DNA of 64,000 bases from Phycisphaeraceae bacterium (GCA_040878035.1 JBBDMX010000099.1:1367-65366); one strand, 5' to 3'; shown: positions 33,505-47,108, numbered from the stretch's first letter. Notes: generated by a model not told the origin, from the letters alone. Numbers and translations are program-made.

Positions 33505-34521
33505 TCAGCCCTTGACCGCGCCGAGTTGAATGCCTTTGACCAGGTACTTCTGGAGGACGATGAAGACCAGGACCATGGGGATGACGGACATGGTGACGGC
33601 GGCCATGAGGAGGTTGGTTTCCTGGCCGGCGGTGGAGTCGAAGTACATCAGGCCGATGGGCAGGGTGTACTTGTGCTCGCTGCGGAGCATGACCAGGGGC
33701 CAGAAGAAGCTGTTGTAGTTGCCCATGTAGGTGAAGATGGCCAGGGTGATCAGGCCGGGGCGGGAGAGGGGGAGGATGATGTCCCAGTAGAGTCGCCACT
33801 TGCTGGCGCCGTCGATCTCGGCGGCCTCGTCGAGACTGGAAGGAATGGTGAGCATGAACTGGCGCAGCAGGAACGTACCAAAGGCGGAGAACGCCCCGGG
33901 CAGGATCAGGCCGACCATCGAGTCCACCAGGCCCAGTTCGATCATGATCTGGTAGTTGGGGATCATCATGACCAGACCCGGTAGCATCATGGTGCAGAGG
34001 TAAAGGACAAAGACCTTGTCGCGGCCGGGCCACTGGAGGCGGGCGAAGGAGAAAGCCGCCAGCGAACTGGTGAAGACTTGAAGAAACGTGACCCAGGCGG
34101 CCACGAAGAGGCTGTTCCAATAGTAGCGTGCAAAGGGGATCGCGCTAAAGACATCCTGGTAATTGCGTGGCACGTTGAAGAGCTCAAAGCCAAAGATGCG
34201 CAGCGGCGCCCATTCGACGCTCGCGGGCAACCACGTGTCCAGGCCGACCTCCTGAAGCTGCTTGAGGCTGGTGAGGACCATCCAGGTGAAGGGCAGCACC
34301 ATGGCAAAGCTCATGACCGCCAGGACCATGTGCAATGCGGAGGTGCCCAGGAAGCGTTTGGCGGCGATGCTGGGTTTGACCGGCAGGTCGGGCAGCGGGC
34401 GGGGCTTGGGGTCGGACGGGCGCAGGGCGGCCTGGGCGTCGATGGCGGCGGCGGGGAAGGTGGACGCCGGCGTGGTGGGCTCGGCGGTGCCGGGGTTCGA
34501 GTTGGCCAGGGGATCGCTCAT
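33505..34521 (-). CDS. Carbohydrate ABC transporter permease (MalG-like)
   Basis: EAA loop DEAAEIDGASKWRLYWDIILPLSRP. Start at Met 34521 within ORF 33505..35010; ATGA overlap with the upstream permease. Confidence 0.8.
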   Translation of the reverse strand: MSDPLANSNPGTAEPTTPASTFPAAAIDAQAALRPSDPKPRPLPDLPVKPSIAAKRFLGTSALHMVLAVMSFAMVLPFTWMVLTSLKQLQEVGLDTWLPASVEWAPLRIFGFELFNVPRNYQDVFSAIPFARYYWNSLFVAAWVTFLQVFTSSLAAFSFARLQWPGRDKVFVLYLCTMMLPGLVMMIPNYQIMIELGLVDSMVGLILPGAFSAFGTFLLRQFMLTIPSSLDEAAEIDGASKWRLYWDIILPLSRPGLITLAIFTYMGNYNSFFWPLVMLRSEHKYTLPIGLMYFDSTAGQETNLLMAAVTMSVIPMVLVFIVLQKYLVKGIQLGAVKG

Positions 34522-36011
34522 TCGTTGACGTATTTGTTGCCGAATTTCCAGTTGAACATCGTGACGCTGAAGACCAGGAGGAACAGGGCCCAGGCGGTGG
34601 CGGAAGCGAAGCTGAGCCGGCCGGTGTCGAACCCCTCGGTATAGATGAAGTAGGCCAGGGTGGTGGTGGAGCCGGCGGGGCCGCCCTTGGTCATGACCCG
34701 CGCCATTTCGAAGCCGCCCTGGAGTCCGCCGATAGTGCTCATCACCGCGATGAAGAAGGTGGTGGGCGCCAGTTGAGGCCAGGTGACGTGCCAGAATTTC
34801 TGGAATCGGCTGGCGCCGTCGATGTTGGCGGCCTCGTAGAGCTCCTCGGGGACGTTGGTCAGGGCCGCCAGGTAGAGGAGCATGTTGTTGGAGCCGATAG
34901 CGCCCCAGAATCCCATGATCATGATGGCGGGCTTGGCCCAGTTGTAGTCCGCCAGCCAGGTGGGCGAACCGAGTCCGCCGGGTCGTGCCGCCAGATCGGG
35001 CAGGTTCCATGCCACCGCCGCCAGGCCCAGCAGGACGAACTGGAAGACCATGACAAAGAGCGCCAGCATCAGGGACGTGCCGGTGCCGGCGCTAGGCCGG
35101 CTGGGGAAGTCACGGCCGGCGCCGGCGACGCGGACTCCCTGCCAGAGGATGACCGCCAGGACACCGGCGGTAAGCCAGAGGGCCTGTCCGCGCGTGGTGC
35201 TCCACACCCACGCCATGACCGTGGGCAGGAGCAGCAGGATGAGGGGCAGGATCAGGGCGGCGCTGCCCGCATCGCCATCGCTCCACATCTGCCGCAGCTT
35301 GGACAGCGACCAGGCCAGCAGCAGGACGATGAGGGCAAAGCCAAGCCACAGCCCCAGGTGCAAGGCGCTGGGCGGCATGGCATTGACGGCGCTGGTGGCG
35401 GCGTCCATGACGGGGCGTACGCCGGCGTTGATGGGCCCGGTTTCCGGGTTGTAGAGCTTCTTCCAGAGGATGTACGTGGCGACGCCGGCGGTGAAGTGGG
35501 GCGCGTAAAAGAGGGTGCGGTAGGCGGTGACGCCGCCGGAGAGTCCCAGGACGACGACCACGCCCGCCAGGCCGACCATGAGGATGGCCATGCCCGTGCC
35601 GCCCATGCCCACGACGGTGAGCATGGCGACGCTGACGATGAGTCCGAAGGTGGCGCAGACCCACAGGTAGACGCGCCTCCCGCCGCCGCGCGTGTCCTTA
35701 CTGAGCAGGATGGCGGCGCCCAGGGACGCGGCGATGCCAAAGGGAATGCCCATCATCAGGAAGAGCGTGTTGCCGAAGTAGCGGAGGAAGTCGCCCTCGC
35801 GGATGAGGCGGATGAAATTGCCCAGGCCGACGAATTCGAGCTTGGCGTCGGGCTTCCACATGTTGTGCAGGCGCAGGTCCCAGTTGGTGAACGCCAGCAT
35901 GATGGCAAAAAGCACGGGAAAGACGACGAACACCAGCATGCCGCAGATATTGGGCGTCAGGAAGGCCAGGCCCAGAATGAGATTGCGGGCTTGCTTGCGG
36001 CGGGAAATCAT
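34518..36011 (-). CDS. Carbohydrate ABC transporter permease (MalF-like) with a large inserted loop
   Basis: EAA loop EELYEAANIDGASRFQKFWHVTWPQLAP; ATGA overlaps on both sides. Confidence 0.8.
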   Translation of the reverse strand: MISRRKQARNLILGLAFLTPNICGMLVFVVFPVLFAIMLAFTNWDLRLHNMWKPDAKLEFVGLGNFIRLIREGDFLRYFGNTLFLMMGIPFGIAASLGAAILLSKDTRGGGRRVYLWVCATFGLIVSVAMLTVVGMGGTGMAILMVGLAGVVVVLGLSGGVTAYRTLFYAPHFTAGVATYILWKKLYNPETGPINAGVRPVMDAATSAVNAMPPSALHLGLWLGFALIVLLLAWSLSKLRQMWSDGDAGSAALILPLILLLLPTVMAWVWSTTRGQALWLTAGVLAVILWQGVRVAGAGRDFPSRPSAGTGTSLMLALFVMVFQFVLLGLAAVAWNLPDLAARPGGLGSPTWLADYNWAKPAIMIMGFWGAIGSNNMLLYLAALTNVPEELYEAANIDGASRFQKFWHVTWPQLAPTTFFIAVMSTIGGLQGGFEMARVMTKGGPAGSTTTLAYFIYTEGFDTGRLSFASATAWALFLLVFSVTMFNWKFGNKYVNE

Positions 36012-37537
36012 GGGGCGTTCTCGTCCGTCTCTGGCGCCGCCTGATTGGTGCGGCGATAGTACGCGCGATAGAAAGTGCTGGTGACCAGTTCCAGCGGGAT
36101 CGCTTTGCCTTGGGCTTTGTACTGATCGATCAGCTTCTGCTGCTGCACAAGCTGGTCGTAGCGGGCCCTGAGCTTGGGCTGTTCTTGGAGCGAGCGAGCA
36201 ATCTCCGCGTTGACGCGCTGGGCCACTTCCGCCGCAGCTTCCTTGGCGGAGCGCATGTCATTCATAAACAACTCGTGGACCCTGTTGACTTCGCGATTGG
36301 CGATGGTGTCGAGCACGAACGGGCTGTAGTCGCCGCCGATGGCGATGTCCTGGGCCGCGTTGAAGAACATTTCGTGGCAGCCCCATTCGTTGGGGTGGTC
36401 CGGCGGACGGTTAAACAACTCGGTCTGGGCGTATTGCGGAATGGGTGGCAGAGCGTCGGCGTCACGGACGATCTGCATGTTGTAATCTTCGCTGGCGAGA
36501 AAGGCCTGGAACAGCCGCGCCAGTTCGGGGTTGGGGCTGCCGATGTACATGCCCGCGGCGCGCGTGGCGATGGTGGTGCTGGGGAACCCGCCGTGCGGCG
36601 GCTCGGAAACGCTCAGCGCCAGGGGGCCGCCCTGGGGGTCCTTGAACTTGCGAAGCTGGATCAGGGCATAGCGCCCGCTGTAGAACATGGCGAAGTTGCC
36701 GCTGTTGAACAACTGGAGTGTCGGCCCGCCGTAGCCCTGCTGGGTGTCAAATCCCTGCCGATCCGCGGCCGTTGGCAGCAGGTGATCGACATAAGTCCAC
36801 TTGTAGACGCGCTCGAGCACCGCAACGAACCGCGGATCGTCCAGTGTGCAGCGCGTCCCGGTTTCGTTGAACTTGCCCAGGCCCAGACTGCGATACATCA
36901 GTTCCAGCACGACGCCATCGGCGAAGAAAACGGTGCGCCGCTGCCCCGGTGGGTTGGCGGCCTCGACCAGTTGCTTGCCGATCGCCTCGAACTGGTCAAA
37001 CGTCCACCGCTTGGGCGGCACGGGCACGCCGTATTTCTCGAACGTCCCCTTGTGGATCCAGTACATCGTCACCGCGACGTTGCAGGGGAACATGTACTGC
37101 CGGCCGTCCAGGGTAATCTCCGGCTCGATCGCGGCGTAGGTGTAGGAGGGGTCGAACTTGAGCTGCCGGCCCCAGTCCGTAACGTCGCGCAAAAGGCCGA
37201 TCGATTGGAAGTAGCGCATGCCCGTGCCGCTACCGATGTCCAACAGGTCGCCCGCCACGCCGCTGACGCCCTGGATCACCTGCTTGGACACTTCGCGGTT
37301 GGCGGTATCCAGGCGCAGGCGCACGGCCGGCTCAGGCTTGCCCTCGGCGCCCGGCACCGTGTAGCCGTTCTTCACCAGCCACTGGTGGAACAATTCCACC
37401 TGCATGTCCCGGGCCGGATTGCGGTCGGTCACCCAATAAATCACCGGCACCTCGCTCTGCTGGTCGGGATACGACCACCAGGTTCCAAAGGCGGCGGCAG
37501 CGAGCACCACGGCAATAGCGGCAAAAAGAAGCTTCAT
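36008..37537 (-). CDS. ABC transporter extracellular solute-binding protein (family 1)
   Basis: Signal peptide MKLLFAAIAVVLAAAAFG and an SBP-1 fold pattern. Start at Met 37537 within ORF 36008..38368. No ATPase gene adjacent. Confidence 0.8.
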   Translation of the reverse strand: MKLLFAAIAVVLAAAAFGTWWSYPDQQSEVPVIYWVTDRNPARDMQVELFHQWLVKNGYTVPGAEGKPEPAVRLRLDTANREVSKQVIQGVSGVAGDLLDIGSGTGMRYFQSIGLLRDVTDWGRQLKFDPSYTYAAIEPEITLDGRQYMFPCNVAVTMYWIHKGTFEKYGVPVPPKRWTFDQFEAIGKQLVEAANPPGQRRTVFFADGVVLELMYRSLGLGKFNETGTRCTLDDPRFVAVLERVYKWTYVDHLLPTAADRQGFDTQQGYGGPTLQLFNSGNFAMFYSGRYALIQLRKFKDPQGGPLALSVSEPPHGGFPSTTIATRAAGMYIGSPNPELARLFQAFLASEDYNMQIVRDADALPPIPQYAQTELFNRPPDHPNEWGCHEMFFNAAQDIAIGGDYSPFVLDTIANREVNRVHELFMNDMRSAKEAAAEVAQRVNAEIARSLQEQPKLRARYDQLVQQQKLIDQYKAQGKAIPLELVTSTFYRAYYRRTNQAAPETDENAP

Positions 37538-37732
37538 GCAATCGCGCGATCTTACGACAAATCGCTCCATACTGCCATTGCGCAAGTGAGCCCTGGAGCC
37601 AGGGGACCCGCCGGAGGTCTCCTGGCTTTTATCCCGTAACGGTTGTGGACCCCGGCATGCGGCGGTACCATGATTCCACTCGGTACGCGACCATGCCGAG
37701 CGCCCGGGGAACCGGGCCTTCGGGGACATGTG

Positions 37733-38398
37733 ATGCAGGAACTGCTTGATGCCATCGCCTCTCCGGTAAACCTGGCTCTCACCGTGCTGCTGGGCTTGGC
37801 GGTCCTCTACTGGCTGCTGGTCATCTTCGGGGCCTTGACGATCGATGCCCTGGACTTTGACATGGATGGCCCGGGCGATCTGCCCGACGGCGGCGACATC
37901 GATCTGCCGGCGCACGGCACCGACGACCTGGCGCACGCCGCCATGAGCCTCTCCTGGCTTCGCTTCTTCAACGTCGGCACCGTCCCGCTGATGTTCCTCC
38001 TGTCTATCTTCCTGCTCATGCTCTGGCTCGCCGGCGTCATCCTCCACCCTGTGATCGGTGCCTGGGGCGTCCTGTTCCAGATTCTGCTGCTGGTGCCCAT
38101 GGCTCTCGCCGCGGCTCTGATCACCAAGGTGCTGACGATGCCGCTGGCCACGATCTTCCGCCGCATGCGCGAACAGGAGGAAGCCGAGCGCCGGGTCGTC
38201 ATGGTCGGCCAGCGCGCCCGCGTGGTTTCCACCAGGCTCACCGATCGCTACGGGCAAGTCGAGGTGGAGACCAACGGCTCGCCCTTGCGGCTCAACGCCC
38301 GCGTCACCGAGGCGGGCCAGGAACTCAAACGTGGCGACGAGGTGATCCTCGTCGCCGAGGACGAACAAGGCAAGTTCTTCATTGTCCGGGGCCTATAA
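37733..38398 (+). CDS. NfeD-like (YqiJ-type) membrane protein with a C-terminal OB-fold
   Basis: TM helices, then GQRARVVSTRLTDRYGQVEVETNGSPLRLNARVTEAGQELKRGDEVILVAEDEQGKFFIV. Confidence 0.65.
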   Translation: MQELLDAIASPVNLALTVLLGLAVLYWLLVIFGALTIDALDFDMDGPGDLPDGGDIDLPAHGTDDLAHAAMSLSWLRFFNVGTVPLMFLLSIFLLMLWLAGVILHPVIGAWGVLFQILLLVPMALAAALITKVLTMPLATIFRRMREQEEAERRVVMVGQRARVVSTRLTDRYGQVEVETNGSPLRLNARVTEAGQELKRGDEVILVAEDEQGKFFIVRGL

Positions 38399-38416
38399 GC
38401 CCCAGGAGCTGAGACG

Positions 38417-40477
38417 TTGACGCAAGCATTGACCGTATTGGTCGCAGCCGCCTTGGCGGTCTTCATCCTGGGCCTGCTGATCACCATCGTCAAGTGTTAC
38501 CGCAAGGTCGAGCCGGGCACCGCCATGGTCCGGCGCGGCTACGGCGGACCGCGCGTGTCCTTCAACGGCATGCTCGTGTTCCCCATCTTCCACCGTGCCG
38601 ACGTGATGGACGTCTCGGTCAAGCGCGTGGAGATTTACCGCCACGGCTCGGAGGGCCTGATCTGCAAGGACAACGTCCGCGCCGACATCAAGGTCGCCTT
38701 CTTCATGCGCGTCAACAACGTCGAGAAGGACGTGCTCCAGGTCGCCGACTCGCTGGGTGTCCGCCGCGCCAGCGACCAGGCCGAACTGGTGGAGCTGTTT
38801 GACGCCAAGTTCTCCGAAGCTCTCAAGACCGTGGGCAAGAAGTTCGACTTCACTGAGCTTTACACCGAACGCGACCGCTTCAAGGACGAGATTCTGGCGC
38901 ACATCGGCACCGACTTGAACGGCTACGTGCTCGACGATGCCGCCGTCGATTACCTCGAGCAGACCGACCTGGCGCAGCTTGATCCCAACAACATTCTCGA
39001 TGCCGAGGGCATTAAGAAGATCGCCGACCTGACGGCCCGCGAGGCGATCCGCGCCAACGAGATCAACCGCGAGAAGGAAAAGACGATCAAGAAGCAGGAC
39101 GTCGAGGCCCGCGAGACGATCCTGGAGCTGGAGCGTCAGCAGGCCGACGCCGAGTCCAAGCAGCAGCGTGAGATCGCCGTGGTCCGCGCCCGCGAGCAGG
39201 CCGAGGCCGACAAGGTGCGTGAGGAGGAGCGGCTCAAGGCCCAGCGCGCGCGCATTACGACCGAGGAGGAGCTGGGCATCGCCGAGGAGAACAAGCAGCG
39301 GCAGGTGCTGGTGGCGCTTCGCTCCAAGGAGCGTACCGACGGCATCGAGCAGGAGCGCGTGACACGCGAGCGCGACCTGGAGGCGACCGACCGCGAGCGC
39401 GTCGTCGAGCTGGCGCGCATCGACAAGGAAAAGGCGCTGGAAGTCGAGCGCAAGAAGATTCAGGACGTGATCCGCGAGCGCGTGGTGGTCGAGCGTGCGG
39501 TGGTCGAGGAGCAGCAGCGCATCCACGACACCGAGGAGCTGATGACCGCCGAGCGCGCCAAGCAGGTGAAGGTGATTGGCGCCACCGCGCTGGCGGAAGA
39601 GAGCAAGATCAAAGAGGTCAAGATGGCCGAGGCTTCGCGGGAGGCCTCCAAGTTCCAGGCGGACGAGATTCTCATCGAGGCTGAGGCCAACCGTCAGTCG
39701 GCCGAGAAGCAGGCGCAGGGCAAGATGAAGCTGGCGGAGGCGACCAGAGCCGAGGCGGCGGCGGGCGGGTTGGCGGAGGCCGAAGTGCTCGACGCCAAGG
39801 CCGGGGCGATCCGCAACTACGGCACGGCGGAAGCCGACGTCGTGGCCGCCAAGGGGCTGGCCGAAGCCAAGGCACTGCAGCAGAAGTATGAGGCCGAGGC
39901 CACCGGCGTCGCTGCCAAGGCCGACGCCATGAAGAAACTCGACGGCGTCGGACGCGACCACGAGGAGTTCAAACTCCGCCTCAACAAGGACCGCGACATC
40001 GAGATCGCCGCCATCAACATCCAGCGTGACGTCGCCGCCGAGCAGGCCAAGGTCCTGGGCGAGGCGCTCAAGCAGGCCAATATCGACATCGTCGGAGGGG
40101 ACAGCGCCTTCTTCGACCGCATCGTCAACTCCATCACCGCCGGCAAGCAGGTCGATCGTTTCGTGGGCAACTCCGATACCGCCCGCTTGGTGCGCGACAC
40201 TTTCTTCAGCGGCAACGGCGAGGGCTTCGGCCAGCGCCTGCGCGAATTCAGCGAGCAGTTCGGCGTCAGCGCCGAGGACCTCAAGAACCTGACGGTCTCG
40301 GCCCTGCTGGCGAAACTGCTGGCGCAGAGTGCTGACGGCACGCTCACCGACGAGCTGCGCCGCATGATCGGCTACGCCCAGAGCCGCGGTCTGGCAGATC
40401 GGCCGGTGCACGATATCGCCGCGGTCACCACCACGACCACCGTGGCCTCAGCCGCTAAGCCCAAGAGCAGGAACTAG
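38417..40477 (+). CDS. Flotillin-like SPFH/band-7 protein (YqiK/FloT type), 686 aa, TTG start
   Basis: N-terminal TM anchor, SPFH head, long E/A/R-rich coiled-coil region. AGGAG sits 8 nt upstream of TTG 38417. Confidence 0.8.
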   Translation: MTQALTVLVAAALAVFILGLLITIVKCYRKVEPGTAMVRRGYGGPRVSFNGMLVFPIFHRADVMDVSVKRVEIYRHGSEGLICKDNVRADIKVAFFMRVNNVEKDVLQVADSLGVRRASDQAELVELFDAKFSEALKTVGKKFDFTELYTERDRFKDEILAHIGTDLNGYVLDDAAVDYLEQTDLAQLDPNNILDAEGIKKIADLTAREAIRANEINREKEKTIKKQDVEARETILELERQQADAESKQQREIAVVRAREQAEADKVREEERLKAQRARITTEEELGIAEENKQRQVLVALRSKERTDGIEQERVTRERDLEATDRERVVELARIDKEKALEVERKKIQDVIRERVVVERAVVEEQQRIHDTEELMTAERAKQVKVIGATALAEESKIKEVKMAEASREASKFQADEILIEAEANRQSAEKQAQGKMKLAEATRAEAAAGGLAEAEVLDAKAGAIRNYGTAEADVVAAKGLAEAKALQQKYEAEATGVAAKADAMKKLDGVGRDHEEFKLRLNKDRDIEIAAINIQRDVAAEQAKVLGEALKQANIDIVGGDSAFFDRIVNSITAGKQVDRFVGNSDTARLVRDTFFSGNGEGFGQRLREFSEQFGVSAEDLKNLTVSALLAKLLAQSADGTLTDELRRMIGYAQSRGLADRPVHDIAAVTTTTTVASAAKPKSRN

Positions 40478-40637
40478 ACCTGCCCCGTTGCGCCATGGGC
40501 AAACTCCCTCTCCCTTCTTAAGGAGAGGGCTGGGGTGAGGGATTCAACGGATTAACATGGCTGGAATGACGCAAGTATCCCAGCCGATGGGGCTGCGGCC
40601 GTGCTGGTGCAAGCACCGAAATTAGGTCCAGGGCACG

Positions 40638-43600
40638 ATGGCTGAAACCGACTCCAATACAACCGCCCCCCAGAGCGCCGCGCCGCCGTCGGCGCCGCTG
40701 GACATCGATCAGGGCGCCTATCAGGTCCTGCGCGACCGCCTGCTCGCCTCGGGGCGCGAGCTGCGCGAGCGCGTGAACAAGCTCAACGCCCAACGCATCG
40801 ACGTGTTCGGCGGCATCCCCACCCAACTGCTCACCACCGAGCAGATCACCACCAGCCACAACTGCGTCCCGCGCGACATGGCGGCCTTCGGCGACCGCTT
40901 TGTCTTTGGCTACAACGTGCGCTTCGGACTCAAGCAGGAAATCGACCTGCCCGATGTCTTTGCCTGCGCCCGCTTCGATGGCCAGCGCTTCCACGAGGAG
41001 CCTATCACCTTCATCGCCGACGTCGTCTTCCGCAAGGAGTTCCAGGACCTCTACCGCTTCTACAAGCACGCCCTTTTCACCAAGTTCTTCAGTCATGGGC
41101 CGCACCTGTACATGAAGTTCCGCGTTGGGCGGAACATGGACGACTTTAAGGCATTCAAGTGGGCCATCAGCCCCGACAAACTCACGTACATCGACAACCG
41201 GTCTGACCACGAGGTCCGCTATCCACAACAGCACTCCTTCGACTGGAATCGCGTCACCCGCGACATGCTCCGGCCGGGCAAGAACCCGCACTACGCCATT
41301 GATGACTGCCTGTTCGTCGAGACCACCGGCGGGGACCTGACCATCAAGATCGAGGACAACACCGAGCACGGCCGGGGCATCTACAGCGAGCCGGTGGACG
41401 ACCCCAGCCAGAGCCCCGACGACGCCGAGATCAGCTACGCCCTGCACGGGAACCTCGTATTGCTGCGCATCCGTCCGTTCGGCGAAGACGGCCACCGCCA
41501 CTTCATCTTCAACCGCAAGCTGCGCGAGGTCATTCGCCAGGACTTCATCGCCGACGCCTGCCAGGCGCTGCCCGACGACCACGGCCTGATCTTCGCCGGC
41601 GGGTACTACCTGGCCTCCGGCAGGCACCATGTCTTCCCCAACATGCCCGCGCGCCTGACCTTCGAGAAACGCATCGCCAGCCCCAACGGCGAAGACTACC
41701 TCTACGTCATGTACGACCGCGGCGAAGGCTTGTACGTGCTGATGCCCTACAACGTCATCGAGCAGCGCGTCGATACGCCCATCGTCTGCTCAGGCTACAG
41801 CATTTTCGACAACGGCCGGCTCGTATTCTTCAAGGCGCACGAAGAGCCGCAGCGGCACCACGCGCTCCAGATCTGGCAGACCCCCTTTGTCGCCGCGGAC
41901 TTCCCCGTCGAACGCAAAAGCGATTCACGCCTCTACCAGATCGGCAACCGCGACATCGTCCGCGGCATGGCCGAGTGCACTCGGCTGCTCCAGTTGATCG
42001 AGCGCGAGCAGCTCTACGCCGAGCTGTACCTCGACATCGTCAAGGCGGCGTCGGCGATGCTCGACGGGTATCACTGGCTCAATGAGCCGGCATCCTTCCA
42101 ACTGGCGCAGGTGATCACGCAAATCCGCGACACCGGCCAAGCCGCCGTCAGCGAGTACGAGAAAGTCGTCCGCCTCCGCAAGGCGTCCCAGGACGCCCTG
42201 GCGCAAGAGCAGGAGCGCACGCGCAACCTGATCAGCGAGAACGCCGCGCGGCTTTACAACGGCGTCGATGCGTTCGTCAAGTCGCTGGCGCTCCTGCGCG
42301 AGGCGCGCGGTCGAATCATCGGCCTCAAGGATGTCCGCTACATCGATGCCTCGCAGGTGGAGGAACTGGAAGGCCAGATCACTGAGCAGACGGGCGAACT
42401 GAGCCGCCGGGCGGTGGAGTTCCTGCTCAAGCCCGACTCGCTGGCGCCCTATGCGTCACGCGGCGAGCAGTTCGCGCAGATGATCGGCGCGGTGGAACGT
42501 GTGGTCGAAGCCAAGGCCCTGTCGGAGAAAATCGAGACCGCCGCCGGCGAGTTGGAGATGCTCATCGAGATCGTGAGCAACCTGCGCATCGAGGACGCGA
42601 CGCAGCGGACGACGATCGTGGACAGCATTTCGGCGGTGTTCGCGACTCTCAACGCCTCGCGGCAGGCGTTGCGCAACCGCATCGCCGAACTGGGCCGCGC
42701 CGAGGGCGCCGCCGAGTTCAACAGCCAGCTCCGCCTGCTGGCTCAGAGCGTGTCCAATTACCTGGACCTGTGCGACACGCCGGAGAAGGTGGACAACTAC
42801 CTGACCAAGATGATGGTGCAGTTGGAGGAACTGGAAGGTCGCTTTGCCGAGTTTGACGATTTGGTGGTGCAACTGGCCCAGACGCGCAACGAAGTGGTCA
42901 CGGCGTTCGAGCAGCGCAAGTTACAGATCACCGAGCGGCGCAACCGCCGGGCCATCGCGCTGGCGCAGGCGGCCGACCGCATCCTGGCGGGCATCAAGTC
43001 GCGCGTCGACGCCATGGACTCGATCCAGCAGATCCACGGCTACTTCGCCTCGGACCTGATGATCGACAAGGTGCGCGACATTCTCGAGGAACTGGCGTCG
43101 ATTCAGGACACCGTCCGCGCCGACGACATCCAGTCCCGGCTCAAGAGCATCCGCGAAGACGCTGTTCGCCAGCTCAAGGACCGCCAGGATCTCCAGGCCG
43201 AGGGGCCCAACACTATTCGCTTCGGCCGGCACGTATTCTCCGTCAACACCCAACCGATCGAGCTGACGCTGGTCCGCCGTGATGCGGGCATGCAGCTTCA
43301 CATCAACGGCACGCGTTTTTTCGATCCCGTAGAGGACGCCGGGCTGCTTGACACGCGCGAGGCGTGGGACCAGGAACTGGTGAGCGAGCGCGACGAGGTC
43401 TATCGCGCTGAATACCTGGCGTACAAGATGCTGCCCTGGGTGACGAATCTGCCCGAGAATGAGCGGCGCGAGCTGCTGGATGAATCGAGCCTCGCCCTGC
43501 TGCAACGTGTGCAGCAGTTCATGGCCACGCGTTACGCCGAGGGCTACACCAAGGGCGTGCACGACGCCGACGCCACCGTCCTCCTGCGGCAGTTGATCGA

Positions 43601-45971
43601 CCTGTCGGCAACCATCGGCCTGCTCCGCTACTCGCCGGCGGCACGCACGCTGGGCGTCCTGTTCTGGCAGATGAACGAGGACACCGACCTGCGGCGCAAG
43701 CTCGCGGGCCAGTTGCTCGCCGTGCGCGAGGTGTTCACTTCCTTCCCCACCCAAGGCAAGCACCCGCGCAGCATTGAAGAGCTGGAGGCCGCGGTGCGTG
43801 CCTTTGCCGCAGAGCGCCCGCCGCTGGATCCCGACCTGGCGCACCAGGCCGCCGAGTACCTGTTCATGGAGGGCACCATCCGTGCCGAGGGCTTTGCCAG
43901 CAGTCCCGAGGCCGACGATCTGATGCGTGGCTTCAACGACCACCTGCGCAATACCGCCGCGGCACGCCGATTCAAGGATTCCCTCGACAAGGTCGGCGAT
44001 GACCCCTGGCGGCGCTACCTGCTGCATCGCGATTGGATGCAGGCGTTTTTCATGGCGTCGGATCTCGATCGCGGGCGCCTGGCGTCTTATCTGGATGAAG
44101 CGGCGCTGCGCTTGTTCGAGGGCCCCAACAGTCACGCCCGGCTCGTGCCCGTGAGCACGCGACGGCGCATCGAAGGCTTGCGCGGCGGGCACAAACGCAT
44201 CGACAACGGCGCCATGGACCTGGAATACACGGAGTTCATGACCCGGCTCCAGCGCTTCGAGCGCCTCGCCGTGCCCCGCTTTGAGCGCTTCACCCAGGCC
44301 AAGCGCAAGGTGGTCGAAGCGGCGCGGCACGACATCCGCGTCGAGGAGTTCAAGCCGCGCGTGCTCACCTCCTTTGTGCGCAACCGGCTCATCGACCGCG
44401 TCTATCTGCCGCTGATCGGCGACAACCTGGCCAAGCAGATCGGCGTCAGCGGCAACACCACCCGCACCGACCGCATGGGCCTGCTGCTGGTCATCAGCCC
44501 GCCGGGCTACGGCAAGACCACGCTCATGGAGTACATTGCCAGCCGGCTGGGCATCGTCTTTGTCAAGATCAACGGCCCGGCGCTGGGCCACGGCGTCACG
44601 TCGCTGGATCCCGAGGAAGCGCCCAACGCCGGCGCTCGCGAGGAAATCGAGCGGCTCAATCTCGCCTTCGAGATGGGCGACAACGTGATGATCTACGTGG
44701 ACGACATCCAGCACACCAACAGCGAGTTTCTCCAGAAGTTCATCTCGCTCTGTGACGCACAACGGCGTGTCGAGGGCGTGTTCCGCGGACGCACGCGCAC
44801 CCACGACCTGCGCGGCCGAAAGGTCGCCGTGGTCATGGCGGGCAACCCCTACACCGAGAGCGGCGAGAAATTCCGCATCCCCGACATGCTCGCCAATCGC
44901 GCCGACACCTATAACCTGGGCGACATCATCGGCGAGCACGGTGATTCATTCCGCAGCAGTTACCTCGAAAACGCATTGACCTCCAACCCCGCGATTAACG
45001 ACCTGGCGGCACGACCCGCCAACGACGTGCACGCCGTCATCCAGATCGCCGCCACCGGCTCACGCGAAGGTGTGGACTTCGAAAGCTCCTTCACCAGCGA
45101 CCAGGTCGACGAGATGGTCAACGTGATGAAGAAGCTCATCCAGGTGCGCGATGTGGTGCTGCGCGTCAATCAGCAGTACATCCGCTCGGCGGCGATGGAG
45201 GACCGCTACCGCACCGAGCCGGCGTTCCTGCTCCAGGGCTCGTACCGCAACATGAACCGCATCGCCGAACGGGTGCTGCCGGTGATGAACGACGCGGAGC
45301 TGCGCACGCTGATCCTCTCGGCGTACGAGCAGGATGCGCAGACGCTGACCACCGGCGCCGAGGCGAACCTGCTCAAGTTCAAGGAGATGATGGGCTGGCT
45401 TGACGAGACGGAGGCCAAGCGCTGGGACGACATCTGCCGGACGTTCCGCCGGACCAACGAAGTGGCGATGATGGGCGGCGACCAGGCGGCGGCGGTGGTG
45501 TCGCAGTTGAGCCGATTCAACGAGGGGCTGGGCGACATCGGTAAGGCGATCGCCGTGGCGGCGGCTTCCGGGGGCCGGCACAACGGCGACGCCAAGGCGG
45601 TGCTGGCCATCGACGAACAAACCGCCGGCGTGATCGCGGCGCTGGCATCGCGCATGGACGCCATGGCGCAGGCCATGGCCGACAGCGCCGCCGCAGCCGC
45701 CCGCCAGGAAGATGTCCCGCCCGCGCCGCCGTCGCCCGAGCAGATCACCGGCAAGACCAGCCCGTATGAAATCAAGGTCATCAACCGCGTGCCCGAAGCG
45801 TTCCTGGTCATCATCCGTCAGCAGTTCGAGCTGATGAAAAGCTGGCTCGAACCGCTGGGCCGCATCGCCGCCGGACAAGAGGACCGTATCCGGCAGGTAG
45901 TCGATTCACTGGAAACACTGACGGCCAAGTACGAACGTGTGATCGAACGATTGGAAAAAGGGCGCGAGTGA
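40638..45971 (+). CDS. Giant uncharacterized protein, 1777 aa: N-terminal globular domain, ~900-aa helical/coiled-coil region, P-loop NTPase module, helical C-terminus
   Basis: Walker A VISPPGYGKTTLMEY (~aa 1285) and Walker B NVMIYVDDIQ (~aa 1355). Clean single ORF with host-like codon usage. Confidence 0.8.
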   Translation: MAETDSNTTAPQSAAPPSAPLDIDQGAYQVLRDRLLASGRELRERVNKLNAQRIDVFGGIPTQLLTTEQITTSHNCVPRDMAAFGDRFVFGYNVRFGLKQEIDLPDVFACARFDGQRFHEEPITFIADVVFRKEFQDLYRFYKHALFTKFFSHGPHLYMKFRVGRNMDDFKAFKWAISPDKLTYIDNRSDHEVRYPQQHSFDWNRVTRDMLRPGKNPHYAIDDCLFVETTGGDLTIKIEDNTEHGRGIYSEPVDDPSQSPDDAEISYALHGNLVLLRIRPFGEDGHRHFIFNRKLREVIRQDFIADACQALPDDHGLIFAGGYYLASGRHHVFPNMPARLTFEKRIASPNGEDYLYVMYDRGEGLYVLMPYNVIEQRVDTPIVCSGYSIFDNGRLVFFKAHEEPQRHHALQIWQTPFVAADFPVERKSDSRLYQIGNRDIVRGMAECTRLLQLIEREQLYAELYLDIVKAASAMLDGYHWLNEPASFQLAQVITQIRDTGQAAVSEYEKVVRLRKASQDALAQEQERTRNLISENAARLYNGVDAFVKSLALLREARGRIIGLKDVRYIDASQVEELEGQITEQTGELSRRAVEFLLKPDSLAPYASRGEQFAQMIGAVERVVEAKALSEKIETAAGELEMLIEIVSNLRIEDATQRTTIVDSISAVFATLNASRQALRNRIAELGRAEGAAEFNSQLRLLAQSVSNYLDLCDTPEKVDNYLTKMMVQLEELEGRFAEFDDLVVQLAQTRNEVVTAFEQRKLQITERRNRRAIALAQAADRILAGIKSRVDAMDSIQQIHGYFASDLMIDKVRDILEELASIQDTVRADDIQSRLKSIREDAVRQLKDRQDLQAEGPNTIRFGRHVFSVNTQPIELTLVRRDAGMQLHINGTRFFDPVEDAGLLDTREAWDQELVSERDEVYRAEYLAYKMLPWVTNLPENERRELLDESSLALLQRVQQFMATRYAEGYTKGVHDADATVLLRQLIDLSATIGLLRYSPAARTLGVLFWQMNEDTDLRRKLAGQLLAVREVFTSFPTQGKHPRSIEELEAAVRAFAAERPPLDPDLAHQAAEYLFMEGTIRAEGFASSPEADDLMRGFNDHLRNTAAARRFKDSLDKVGDDPWRRYLLHRDWMQAFFMASDLDRGRLASYLDEAALRLFEGPNSHARLVPVSTRRRIEGLRGGHKRIDNGAMDLEYTEFMTRLQRFERLAVPRFERFTQAKRKVVEAARHDIRVEEFKPRVLTSFVRNRLIDRVYLPLIGDNLAKQIGVSGNTTRTDRMGLLLVISPPGYGKTTLMEYIASRLGIVFVKINGPALGHGVTSLDPEEAPNAGAREEIERLNLAFEMGDNVMIYVDDIQHTNSEFLQKFISLCDAQRRVEGVFRGRTRTHDLRGRKVAVVMAGNPYTESGEKFRIPDMLANRADTYNLGDIIGEHGDSFRSSYLENALTSNPAINDLAARPANDVHAVIQIAATGSREGVDFESSFTSDQVDEMVNVMKKLIQVRDVVLRVNQQYIRSAAMEDRYRTEPAFLLQGSYRNMNRIAERVLPVMNDAELRTLILSAYEQDAQTLTTGAEANLLKFKEMMGWLDETEAKRWDDICRTFRRTNEVAMMGGDQAAAVVSQLSRFNEGLGDIGKAIAVAAASGGRHNGDAKAVLAIDEQTAGVIAALASRMDAMAQAMADSAAAAARQEDVPPAPPSPEQITGKTSPYEIKVINRVPEAFLVIIRQQFELMKSWLEPLGRIAAGQEDRIRQVVDSLETLTAKYERVIERLEKGRE

Positions 45972-45995: not shown

Positions 45996-47108
45996 TCAGT
46001 GAGCCTGATTCAGTTCGATCTCCAGCACTTCCAGGGCGGCGTCGACGTGGTGGGGGTCGCCGTCGGCTTGGAGCATGGCGGGGGTACTCATCGCCAGCAG
46101 GGCGCGTTTGACCGACGCCAGGCGGGGCCAGTCGGGTTCGGCGTGCAGGCCCAGGGCTTTGCGTTCGTGGGCGATCATGCTGCACAGCCGCCGGCCGCGC
46201 AATTTCTGCCGTCGCGCCCAATAGAGGTGCTCGAAATATACCGCGTCCTCGACCCAGAAGCCCGCGTGCACCTGGGCGAAATCCAGCAGCAAGGCCGGCC
46301 CGTCGGGCGCCGGAACACGGGTCATGGCGTTGCCCAGATGCAGGTCGCCGTGGCACCATTGGTCGCGCGGGCGGTCGTTCCAGATCTTCATCCAGTCGCG
46401 CAGCTTCTTGTGCGCGGTCTTCAGCGCGTTCTTCCAGCGCTGCTCGTTGCGGACATCGTGGTCCCGGGTGATGTTGCGACGGGCGGTGTCGAGAATGGCC
46501 TTCCAGTCCCTTTCCGGGTGTGGGGCTTGACCGGTGATGGGCACCTCGGCGGCGGCGGCATGGAAGCGGGCGGCGGCCTGCGTCAGCAGGTCGAATTCGG
46601 CGCCGTTCCACGCGCTGCCCAGCGGGCCATGCGGCAGGCGCTCCATCACCACCCACGCCAGGTCATAGCCGTTAAGCGTTTCACCCTGGGCATAGACGCG
46701 CGGCACGATGTCGCTGTATCGCGTCAGATGGAGCAGCCAGAAGCGTTCGATAGGCGGCACGGGGAGCTTGACGACGACGGGCTGGTCGATGCCGTGGTCA
46801 TCGCGGAAGGTGGCGTAACCCGTGGCGGCGCCGCCGCGCTGCCAGGTGGTGCGGAACCAGGTGATGGCGGAAAGCCGGCCGTCGCAGGCGCCGGCGAGCA
46901 CGGGCTCCAGCGCGGCCCCAAAGGGCGACTCCTGGCCGGGCAGGTTGTGCAGGGAACCACTGCCGGCCGAAGGCAGCGTGGGGGGAATAGATTGCGATAA
47001 CGGAGGCAGGGCCGGCATTAAGCCGGAAAATCTGGCCGGGTCGCCTGAACCTCCGAACAGGCGCCGGCCCAACTGTGGCTCGGATGTGGGCGATTGCTCC
47101 ATCCGCAC
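45996..47108 (-). CDS. Phosphotransferase (APH/choline-kinase-like) family protein
   Basis: CHGDLHLGN catalytic motif and the downstream DFAQVHAGFWVEDAVYF. The N-terminal ~60 aa is low complexity; the real start may be the internal Met at ~47018. Confidence 0.6.
   Translation of the reverse strand: MRMEQSPTSEPQLGRRLFGGSGDPARFSGLMPALPPLSQSIPPTLPSAGSGSLHNLPGQESPFGAALEPVLAGACDGRLSAITWFRTTWQRGGAATGYATFRDDHGIDQPVVVKLPVPPIERFWLLHLTRYSDIVPRVYAQGETLNGYDLAWVVMERLPHGPLGSAWNGAEFDLLTQAAARFHAAAAEVPITGQAPHPERDWKAILDTARRNITRDHDVRNEQRWKNALKTAHKKLRDWMKIWNDRPRDQWCHGDLHLGNAMTRVPAPDGPALLLDFAQVHAGFWVEDAVYFEHLYWARRQKLRGRRLCSMIAHERKALGLHAEPDWPRLASVKRALLAMSTPAMLQADGDPHHVDAALEVLEIELNQAH

Follow-up and report, generated by a model that had tools for sequence, protein, structure and literature searches.

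A YqiJ–flotillin–AAA+ ATPase module in a Phycisphaeraceae bacterium and its relatives in eight phyla

What might a very large ATPase be doing when it is encoded directly behind a flotillin and the flotillin's membrane partner? The question is raised by a 64-kb stretch of a Phycisphaeraceae genome (GCA_040878035.1, JBBDMX010000099.1:1367-65366; G+C ~64 per cent), hereafter the window, in which positions 37733-45971 of the plus strand form a self-contained, co-directional module of three genes: a yqiJ/nfeD-like gene, a flotillin gene, and a gene for a 1777-residue AAA+ ATPase (Table 1). A first-pass annotation, made from the sequence alone, had taken this module for a candidate membrane-microdomain ATPase system that was as yet undescribed, and had considered a functional link between the large protein and the flotillin plausible. 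The module is in fact widespread, mis-annotated, and already computationally defined, and thus not undescribed; the proposed link is strongly favored by gene order in related genomes.

Conservation of the three genes and the operon already on record

Relatives of the ATPase were collected by a pattern scan over one genome per GTDB species, which returned at least 600 stretches, at least 550 of which tblastn confirmed as encoding a relative; of these the best 80 loci were retained. Flotillin and YqiJ-like genes were counted at the 63 of these loci that had at least 3.2 kb of upstream DNA, by tblastn with the window's own proteins. A full-length flotillin (36-68 per cent identity) lies directly upstream on the same strand at 60 of the 63, and a YqiJ-like gene stands ahead of the flotillin at 52 loci. 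The loci come from Planctomycetota, Verrucomicrobiota, Kiritimatiellota, Bacteroidota, Desulfobacterota, Clostridia, Omnitrophota, and Fibrobacterota (eight phyla), with two further loci that are unclassified or tentatively assigned. Clustering of open reading frames (ORFs) recovered the same gene order and no other gene conserved across phyla, and the ATPase itself keeps ~44-55 per cent identity over its full length from one phylum to another. In the nearest relative (66 per cent identity) the same three genes sit between entirely different flanks, and because flanking genes differ between loci, it is only these three that travel together.

Judged by this comparison of genomes, the three genes very probably constitute a functional unit, and both their identity and their functional linkage are strongly supported. 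A homologue of the 1777-residue protein recurs beside flotillin throughout the range of phyla sampled, which is the synteny that the suggested link would lead one to expect. The sole confident match of the large protein is to a domain of unknown function, and its synteny with SPFH/NfeD genes is conserved, so the proposal does not founder either on a characterised family or on a scattered neighbourhood.

Small ORFs of ~125-185 residues (clusters c16 and c17) lie between the flotillin and the ATPase in seven Bacteroidota or Verrucomicrobiota loci (L018, L033, L034, L022, L036, L042, and L079) and look like insertions. In the nearest relative (L082) a second, unrelated AAA protein of 608 residues (PF00004; 11483-13309) is encoded two genes downstream of the ATPase; it has no counterpart in the window.

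The association of these genes had already been noted by comparative genomics. An operon of CesT/Tir, PspA, YqiJ, flotillin, and a beta-propeller/coiled-coil/AAA+ protein, together with 'abbreviated' forms that are without PspA, was described by Ravi et al. (mSystems 2024, PMC11237479; bioRxiv 2020), and the same gene string is given for Dokdonia donghaensis DSW-1 in the supplement to that paper. The ATPase is likewise covered by two Pfam families (DUF3686 and DUF7902) and by an NCBI product name ('DNA repair ATPase'), so the first-pass statement that no described partner resembles the third gene has to be withdrawn. The published account amounts to one paragraph and offers no clade assignment of the ATPase, motif analysis, or experiments (PMC11237479). 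A literature search found no experimental work on the function of the module, no experimental study of the ATPase in particular, and no paper using DUF3686 or PF12458; a paper on FArhodopsin and flotillin mentions no ATPase.

Neither PspA nor CesT/Tir was found in the 64-kb window by tblastn or by profile hidden Markov models, and the module is therefore the abbreviated form of the operon of Ravi et al. It agrees with the published string in having a YqiJ with three transmembrane (TM) segments in first place, a flotillin in second, and a protein with propeller, coiled coil, and AAA+ module in third, all on one strand, whereas the CesT/Tir-PspA dyad of the full form is missing. The full form, including the divergent gene for a helix-turn-helix (HTH) protein with a protease domain, CesT_Tir_1, and PspA, is reproduced in Bacteroidota. 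There a PspA/IM30 gene (E=4e-42 for a representative) lies ahead of the module at 17 of the 24 loci whose upstream DNA is long enough, 15 of those 17 have a CesT_Tir_1 gene (E=7e-56) ahead of it as well, and most of the loci with PspA have a divergent HTH+S24 (LexA-like) regulator. The arrangement suggests that the CesT/Tir-PspA-YqiJ-flotillin-ATPase operon is regulated by a self-cleaving repressor. A gene of this kind, HTH_19/HTH_3 joined to a Peptidase_S24-like domain of LexA/CI type, was seen in divergent orientation ~3-4 kb upstream of the ATPase at L011, L017, L023, L033, L034, L043, L045, L049, L057, L068, L069, L074, and L078, and corresponds to the 'cHTH+Protease' of the published supplement (PMC11237479). 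Four Bacteroidota loci (L011, L028, L053, and L072) continue downstream with DUF4178, an unannotated lipoprotein-like ORF, DUF350, and a membrane-anchored spermine synthase, and these downstream genes join the flotillin-ATPase operon to the class of polyamine-linked PspA operons.

Architecture of the ATPase and its two partners

The ATPase matches Pfam DUF3686 (PF12458) along the whole profile (positions 1-448 of 448; E=6e-176, 585.8 bits against a cut-off of 25), with further matches to DUF7902 (E=1.4e-24) and to generic AAA (E=3e-6). It is 100 per cent identical to a protein from a Phycisphaeraceae metagenome-assembled genome (MAG) and has at least 4946 homologues at E<=1e-10. PF12458 carries the title 'ATPase involved in DNA repair'. 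No TM segment was found in the protein, which points to a soluble, cytoplasmic location, and Pfam and NCBIfam scans detected no peptidase, nuclease, toxin, DNA-binding, or SMC/RecN-type domain in it.

When the PDB was searched by sequence with the protein alone, with an AAA+ profile, and with a full-length profile, the only matches covered ~40 residues around Walker A; there is thus no solved structure of a close relative, and the architecture was approached by AlphaFold2 run on 68-sequence alignments in two parts, residues 1-1200 (mean predicted local distance difference test, pLDDT, 83) and 1181-1777 (mean pLDDT 79). Foldseek searches with the N-terminal model returned beta-propellers only (WD40, thiocyanate dehydrogenase, prolyl oligopeptidase, and CyRPA) at E-values of 1e-5 to 1e-3, and given these modest values and a poor root-mean-square deviation (rmsd) we call the domain propeller-like and leave its number of blades unfixed. 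A helical stalk and a mixed middle region follow, and for the middle region (residues 860-1196) a PDB profile search found nothing outside the P-loop of the protein. In the second model an AAA+ alpha/beta core that includes a pre-sensor-1 beta-hairpin is accompanied by a lid and by long helices at the C-terminus. The last of the conserved helices has six invariant residues in the homologue alignment (V1714, P1719, Q1729, F1730, W1736, and P1739), and tblastn homology of the Bacteroidota and Clostridia proteins to the window's ATPase stops at about residue 1640.

When 1.84 billion cluster representatives were searched with the N-terminal domain, 700 clusters (50 per cent identity) were recovered, and wherever the protein was complete the domain was N-terminal in a protein of ~1600-1930 residues; the propeller-stalk-AAA+ architecture is fixed. 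The same 700 representatives were inspected for Rosetta-stone fusions of the ATPase with flotillin or NfeD. The sole candidate, P0241 (a metagenomic representative of 1345 residues), consists of NfeD1b_N, the ClpP-like long-NfeD type, followed by ~260 low-complexity residues and the DUF3686 ATPase. The low-complexity linker suggests that this gene call is an artefact, probably of read-through or a frameshift, in which case the genome of origin has a long NfeD immediately ahead of the ATPase, and P0241 was not counted as evidence. A Rubripirellula MAG (L019, 8001-13196) has the ATPase gene in two pieces, ORFs of 776 and 887 residues, which could reflect a frameshift, a pseudogene, or an assembly error.

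Motif conservation was scored over 77 homologues from the eight phyla. Walker A, sensor-1, R1421, R1525, and R1537 are present in all of them, and these invariant motifs point to an active enzyme. The second acidic residue of Walker B is an aspartate throughout, an unusual state for an AAA+ protein whose remaining catalytic motifs are all intact. The predicted structure places the AAA+ module with MoxR and midasin rather than with FtsH, closest to CbbQ, NorQ, and RavA, with which it has the pre-sensor-1 hairpin in common; profile scores are marginal and not specific, at 24.3 bits for AAA_5 (cut-off 22) and 28 bits for generic AAA (cut-off 21.2). The ATPase nevertheless differs from MoxR proteins (CbbQ, NorQ, RavA) and from midasin and dynein in being without a partner that bears a VWA domain and its metal-ion-dependent adhesion site (MIDAS), and in its D-D rather than D-E Walker B. 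It differs as well in size, since its AAA+ module comes after ~1250 residues of propeller and stalk while MoxR proteins measure ~270-500 residues, and the likeness in sequence is limited to generic AAA profiles.

The first gene encodes a YqiJ-type membrane protein. It scores above the gathering threshold of Pfam YqiJ_N (E=1.4e-8), can be aligned from end to end with E. coli YqiJ (BLASTP E=3e-8), and has ~3 hydrophobic or TM segments within hydrophobic stretches at residues 4-42 and 76-142, followed by a soluble tail of which the C-terminal 60 residues appear beta-rich by eye. The first-pass description ('NfeD-like OB-fold membrane protein') agrees with this as regards the membrane, and the OB fold would be putative, the Pfam NfeD model (PF01957) not matching the protein even at E<=10. 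A profile of 27 YqiJ-like homologues found no chain in the PDB.

The second gene encodes a long flotillin of the YqiK type, composed of an N-terminal TM helix (one TM segment, residues 1-31), an SPFH/Band-7 domain (Band_7, E=8e-9), an E/A-rich coiled coil of ~300 residues, and a conserved C-terminal region at about residues 457-686. Over the 320 residues from 200 to 520 glutamate and alanine each make up 17 per cent, and the SPFH head and very long EA-rich coiled coil that had been read from the sequence are thus both in evidence. BLASTP aligns residues 5-456 with E. coli YqiK at 30 per cent identity (E=7e-42) and aligns none of ~457-686, a region conserved among the 26 ATPase-linked flotillins compared. 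NCBI and JGI name the homologues 'flotillin family protein' or 'YqiK', and a search of the PDB with the flotillin profile reached QmcA alone (E=8.5e-4). Pfam Flot (PF15975) matches neither the window's flotillin nor any of the 26.

With Pfam NfeD and Flot both silent, the assignment of the pair to yqiJK rests on YqiJ_N, on Band_7, and on the BLASTP alignments to YqiJ and YqiK, which together with the adjacency and common orientation of the two genes uphold the pairing first proposed. At the threshold of E<=1e-3 Pfam YqiJ_N recognises only 8 of the 27 YqiJ-like proteins from ATPase-linked loci and Band_7 only 4 of the 26 flotillins; domain-based surveys will consequently undercount the module. 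The order of genes and their tight spacing are those of E. coli yqiJ-yqiK and B. subtilis yuaF-floT, but downstream of yqiJK E. coli has sibD/ibsD in place of an ATPase, and the window's flotillin exceeds YqiK by 133 residues, its unaligned end being conserved among the flotillins of ATPase-linked loci.

Gene starts, spacer and flanks

ORF listing and translation reproduce the gene positions, the intergenic distances, the TTG start of the flotillin, and the single 5.3-kb ORF of the first-pass annotation, as well as the convergent kinase-like gene at the 3' end (Table 1). The yqiJ-like ORF opens mechanically at a TTG (37643), upstream of the ATG that we take as the start because the alignment with homologues of other phyla begins at residue 1 of the protein read from that ATG. 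The flotillin gene, which begins after a gap of 18 nt, has no possible start earlier than its TTG, and this start is credible since the N-terminal hydrophobic helix encoded from it is conserved in homologues.

Table 1. Coordinates of the module, its immediate surroundings, and the domains and motifs of the ATPase. Nucleotide positions are those of the window; residue positions are those of the 1777-residue protein, and motif counts refer to the 77 homologues.
Feature	Position	Strand	Remarks
Gene 1, yqiJ/nfeD-like	37733-38398	+	ATG start; 221 aa
Gene 2, flotillin	38417-40477	+	TTG start; 686 aa
Spacer, flotillin to ATPase	40478-40637	+	Exactly 160 nt
Hairpin in spacer	40506-40529	+	Perfect 8-bp stem, CCCTCTCC (40506-40513) against GGAGAGGG (40522-40529); 8-nt loop; no U-tract
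Gene 3, ATPase	40638-45971	+	5334-nt ORF; 1777 aa
N-terminal all-beta, beta-propeller-like domain	40824-41879	+	Residues 63-414, preceded by helix 25-57; pLDDT ~90, ~27 strands
Helical stalk	41928-43190	+	Residues 431-851; helices of 49-58 residues, pLDDT ~80; includes DUF7902 (600-683)
Middle region	43215-44225	+	Beta unit 860-897, helical domain 923-1161, short beta unit 1175-1196 (AlphaFold2)
AAA+ alpha/beta core	44445-44927	+	Residues ~1270-1430
AAA+ lid and conserved C-terminal helical extension	44928-45557	+	Residues ~1431-1640; invariant R1525, R1537
Conserved C-terminal helix	45777-45968	+	Residues ~1714-1777; in Planctomycetota-type homologues, missing in shorter Bacteroidota forms
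Walker A	Residues 1287-1295		SPPGYGKTT; invariant, 77/77
Walker B	44685-44705 (residues 1350-1356)		YVDD, D1355-D1356; D-D not D-E, 77/77; Y-V/L-D-D in all
Pre-sensor-1 beta-hairpin	Residues 1376-1393		Tip G-V-[Y/W/F]-x-G; F1382 in the window's protein, an aromatic residue at this position in 71/77
Sensor-1	N1403		77/77
Arginine finger	R1421		77/77
Sensor-2 candidates	R1525, R1537		77/77
Classical pore-loop-1 position			G-H-x-V; conserved, no aromatic
Divergent intergenic region	37538-37732		Between SBP gene (-) and yqiJ/nfeD (+); presumed promoter region
ABC-transporter solute-binding-protein (SBP) gene	36008-37537	-	SBP_bac_1 E=2.5e-13; ATG start at 37537; divergent from yqiJ; outside module
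APH-family phosphotransferase gene	45996-47108	-	Pfam APH E=1.4e-14; convergent; outside module

The promoter of the module presumably lies in the divergent region ahead of yqiJ, in which no sigma-70-type consensus was found. On the far side of that region stands a solute-binding-protein gene, downstream of which two permease genes follow (BPD_transp_1 in 34518-36011 and 33505-35010, both on the minus strand); this flank is not kept in related loci, and the phosphotransferase gene at the other end does not recur beside the module elsewhere. A plus-strand ORF at 36110-37639 (509 residues) was considered as a fourth, upstream gene and set aside, having no Pfam match and appearing by eye to be an antisense shadow of the solute-binding-protein gene. 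The 5' extension of the latter's minus-strand ORF reaches 38368, crosses yqiJ, and makes a second long shadow ORF in 36008-38368. Such shadows are a typical artefact of high G+C content and could mislead gene calling.

The spacer ahead of the ATPase gene does contain the hairpin that the first-pass annotation had pointed out, but the hairpin is unremarkable and carries no discernible signal. The spacer folds no better than its dinucleotide shuffles (z=-0.34), shows no terminator, T-tract, or promoter consensus, and matches no Rfam family; the hairpin motif occurs once in the window and in none of 82 related loci. Nor is the spacer a conserved feature, as the distance from flotillin to ATPase varies from 31 to more than 2000 nt in related loci, the nearest relative having 63 nt. 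The reading of the hairpin as a terminator or regulatory element was rejected on the grounds of the shuffle-level fold, the absence of a T-tract and of an Rfam family, the unconserved length and sequence, and the single copy.

A possible role on a membrane scaffold

SPFH proteins form membrane-attached cages with NfeD partners (QmcA-YbbJ, HflK/C, flotillin), and in the solved SPFH-NfeD and flotillin structures a cage or dome of SPFH subunits has the NfeD-type partner beneath it. MoxR-type and related ring ATPases, for their part, remodel folded complexes via pore-facing hairpins. The locus as a whole is probably best explained as an abbreviated YqiJ-flotillin-AAA+ module in which the ATPase remodels the scaffold or its clients. 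As to the particular role of the ATPase, the likeliest candidate, which gene order and predicted structure allow us to put forward only tentatively, would be a cytoplasmic, ATP-driven remodeller that works on the flotillin/YqiJ membrane scaffold.

In such a scheme flotillin subunits would assemble an SPFH cage or dome at the cytoplasmic side of the inner membrane, YqiJ would lie embedded under it, and the ATPase would form a ring that docks on this scaffold via its propeller, its stalk, or both. The C-terminal region of the flotillin (~457-686), to which YqiK has no match, is the candidate docking site. Hydrolysis of ATP may then remodel the scaffold by assembling, opening, or disassembling the cage, or may extract clients from it, possibly PspA polymers, and the aromatic-tipped pre-sensor-1 hairpin could act as the loop that grips the substrate. 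A narrower version, in which the DUF3686 protein is a dedicated assembly and disassembly (recycling) machine for flotillin cages, a stalked MoxR-like ring whose propellers grip flotillin residues ~457-686, must be regarded as doubtful.

For S. aureus, FloA-NfeD has been reported as stabilising unfolded proteins in an ATP-independent manner (PMC11222466; PMC13086221), which leaves room for an ATP-driven partner. HflK/HflC with FtsH, invoked from the outset as a precedent, resembles the module in that an SPFH-family scaffold is coupled, genetically or physically, to an AAA+ machine at the inner membrane, and to that extent the comparison holds. It is an analogy only, however: FtsH is anchored in the membrane, is a member of the classical AAA clade, and has an aromatic pore loop and an M41 protease, whereas the ATPase here is predicted to be soluble and MoxR/midasin-like and has neither such a loop nor a protease.

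Several observations weigh against a remodelling role. The linkage of the ATPase to flotillin and YqiJ is genomic; no credible fusion of the ATPase with flotillin or with NfeD was found among the 700 clusters, and at 3 of the 63 loci (L015, L029, and L044) no flotillin lies within 8 kb of the ATPase. An invariant D-D in Walker B would be compatible with hydrolysis that is slow, gated, or regulatory, the equivalent of pore-loop-1 has no aromatic residue, and the propeller assignment rests on weak Foldseek E-values and a poor rmsd. Relatives of MoxR, moreover, normally act with a VWA partner, and none adjoins the module: no VWA protein was found among the annotated neighbour clusters conserved in the 80 loci, or among the neighbours in the window (YqiJ, flotillin, solute-binding protein, and APH).

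The alternative that survives best is that the ATPase acts mainly on PspA/ESCRT-III-type polymers encoded elsewhere, in the manner of Vps4, with flotillin and YqiJ serving only as a membrane platform. Vps4 with ESCRT-III/Snf7, of which PspA and Vipp1 are bacterial relatives, likewise couples an AAA+ protein to a membrane-shaping polymer, and the presence of PspA and CesT/Tir in the same operon at 17 and 15 Bacteroidota loci, respectively, would fit such a role. The constant partner of the ATPase is nevertheless flotillin and not PspA, which is absent from most loci and from the window, and a PspA-centred function is accordingly judged unlikely. The ATPase also differs from Vps4 in having no MIT domain and in its AAA+ clade.

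It might also be supposed that the module serves in anti-phage or abortive-infection defence, its SPFH scaffold and large NTPase together detecting infection at the membrane, since an autonomous module with variable flanks and a very large NTPase are both features common in defence islands. PADLOC 2.0, however, gave no match for the first two genes and only a marginal one for the third (mad8, E=0.0034, over the AAA core), and effector domains such as a nuclease or toxin are absent. The identity retained between phyla is unusually conservative for a defence gene, and the Bacteroidota copies lie within a PspA/polyamine envelope-stress operon, all of which makes a defence function very unlikely.

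Least credible of all, to the point of being highly improbable, is the notion that the ATPase is a DNA-repair enzyme with a flotillin neighbour of no functional meaning, for which there speak only the Pfam title, the NCBI name, and weak matches of the P-loop region to RuvB (E ~1e-4) that cover ~45 residues around Walker A, are no better than those to p97, and reach 21 bits against a cut-off of 282, whereas there is no DNA-binding, nuclease, or SMC/RecN-type domain and no SMC-type ABC head, the conserved neighbours are membrane proteins at those 60 loci with no repair gene among them, and the literature search noted above found no paper in which the family is used.

Nothing, in short, was found in support of the 'DNA repair' label, which thousands of proteins carry; the evidence points instead to the biology of the membrane and envelope. 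How SPFH cages are opened, loaded, or recycled, and what bacterial flotillins do, are questions for which an ATPase linked to flotillin at nearly all testable loci offers a tractable genetic handle. The MoxR-like fold, the D-D Walker B, the aromatic tip of the hairpin, and the C-terminal flotillin region at ~457-686 are direct targets for mutation. If the ATPase is indeed a dedicated recycling machine for flotillin cages, no other ATPase is known, in any organism, to have remodelled a flotillin/SPFH scaffold before it, and its action would compare with that of Vps4 on ESCRT-III.

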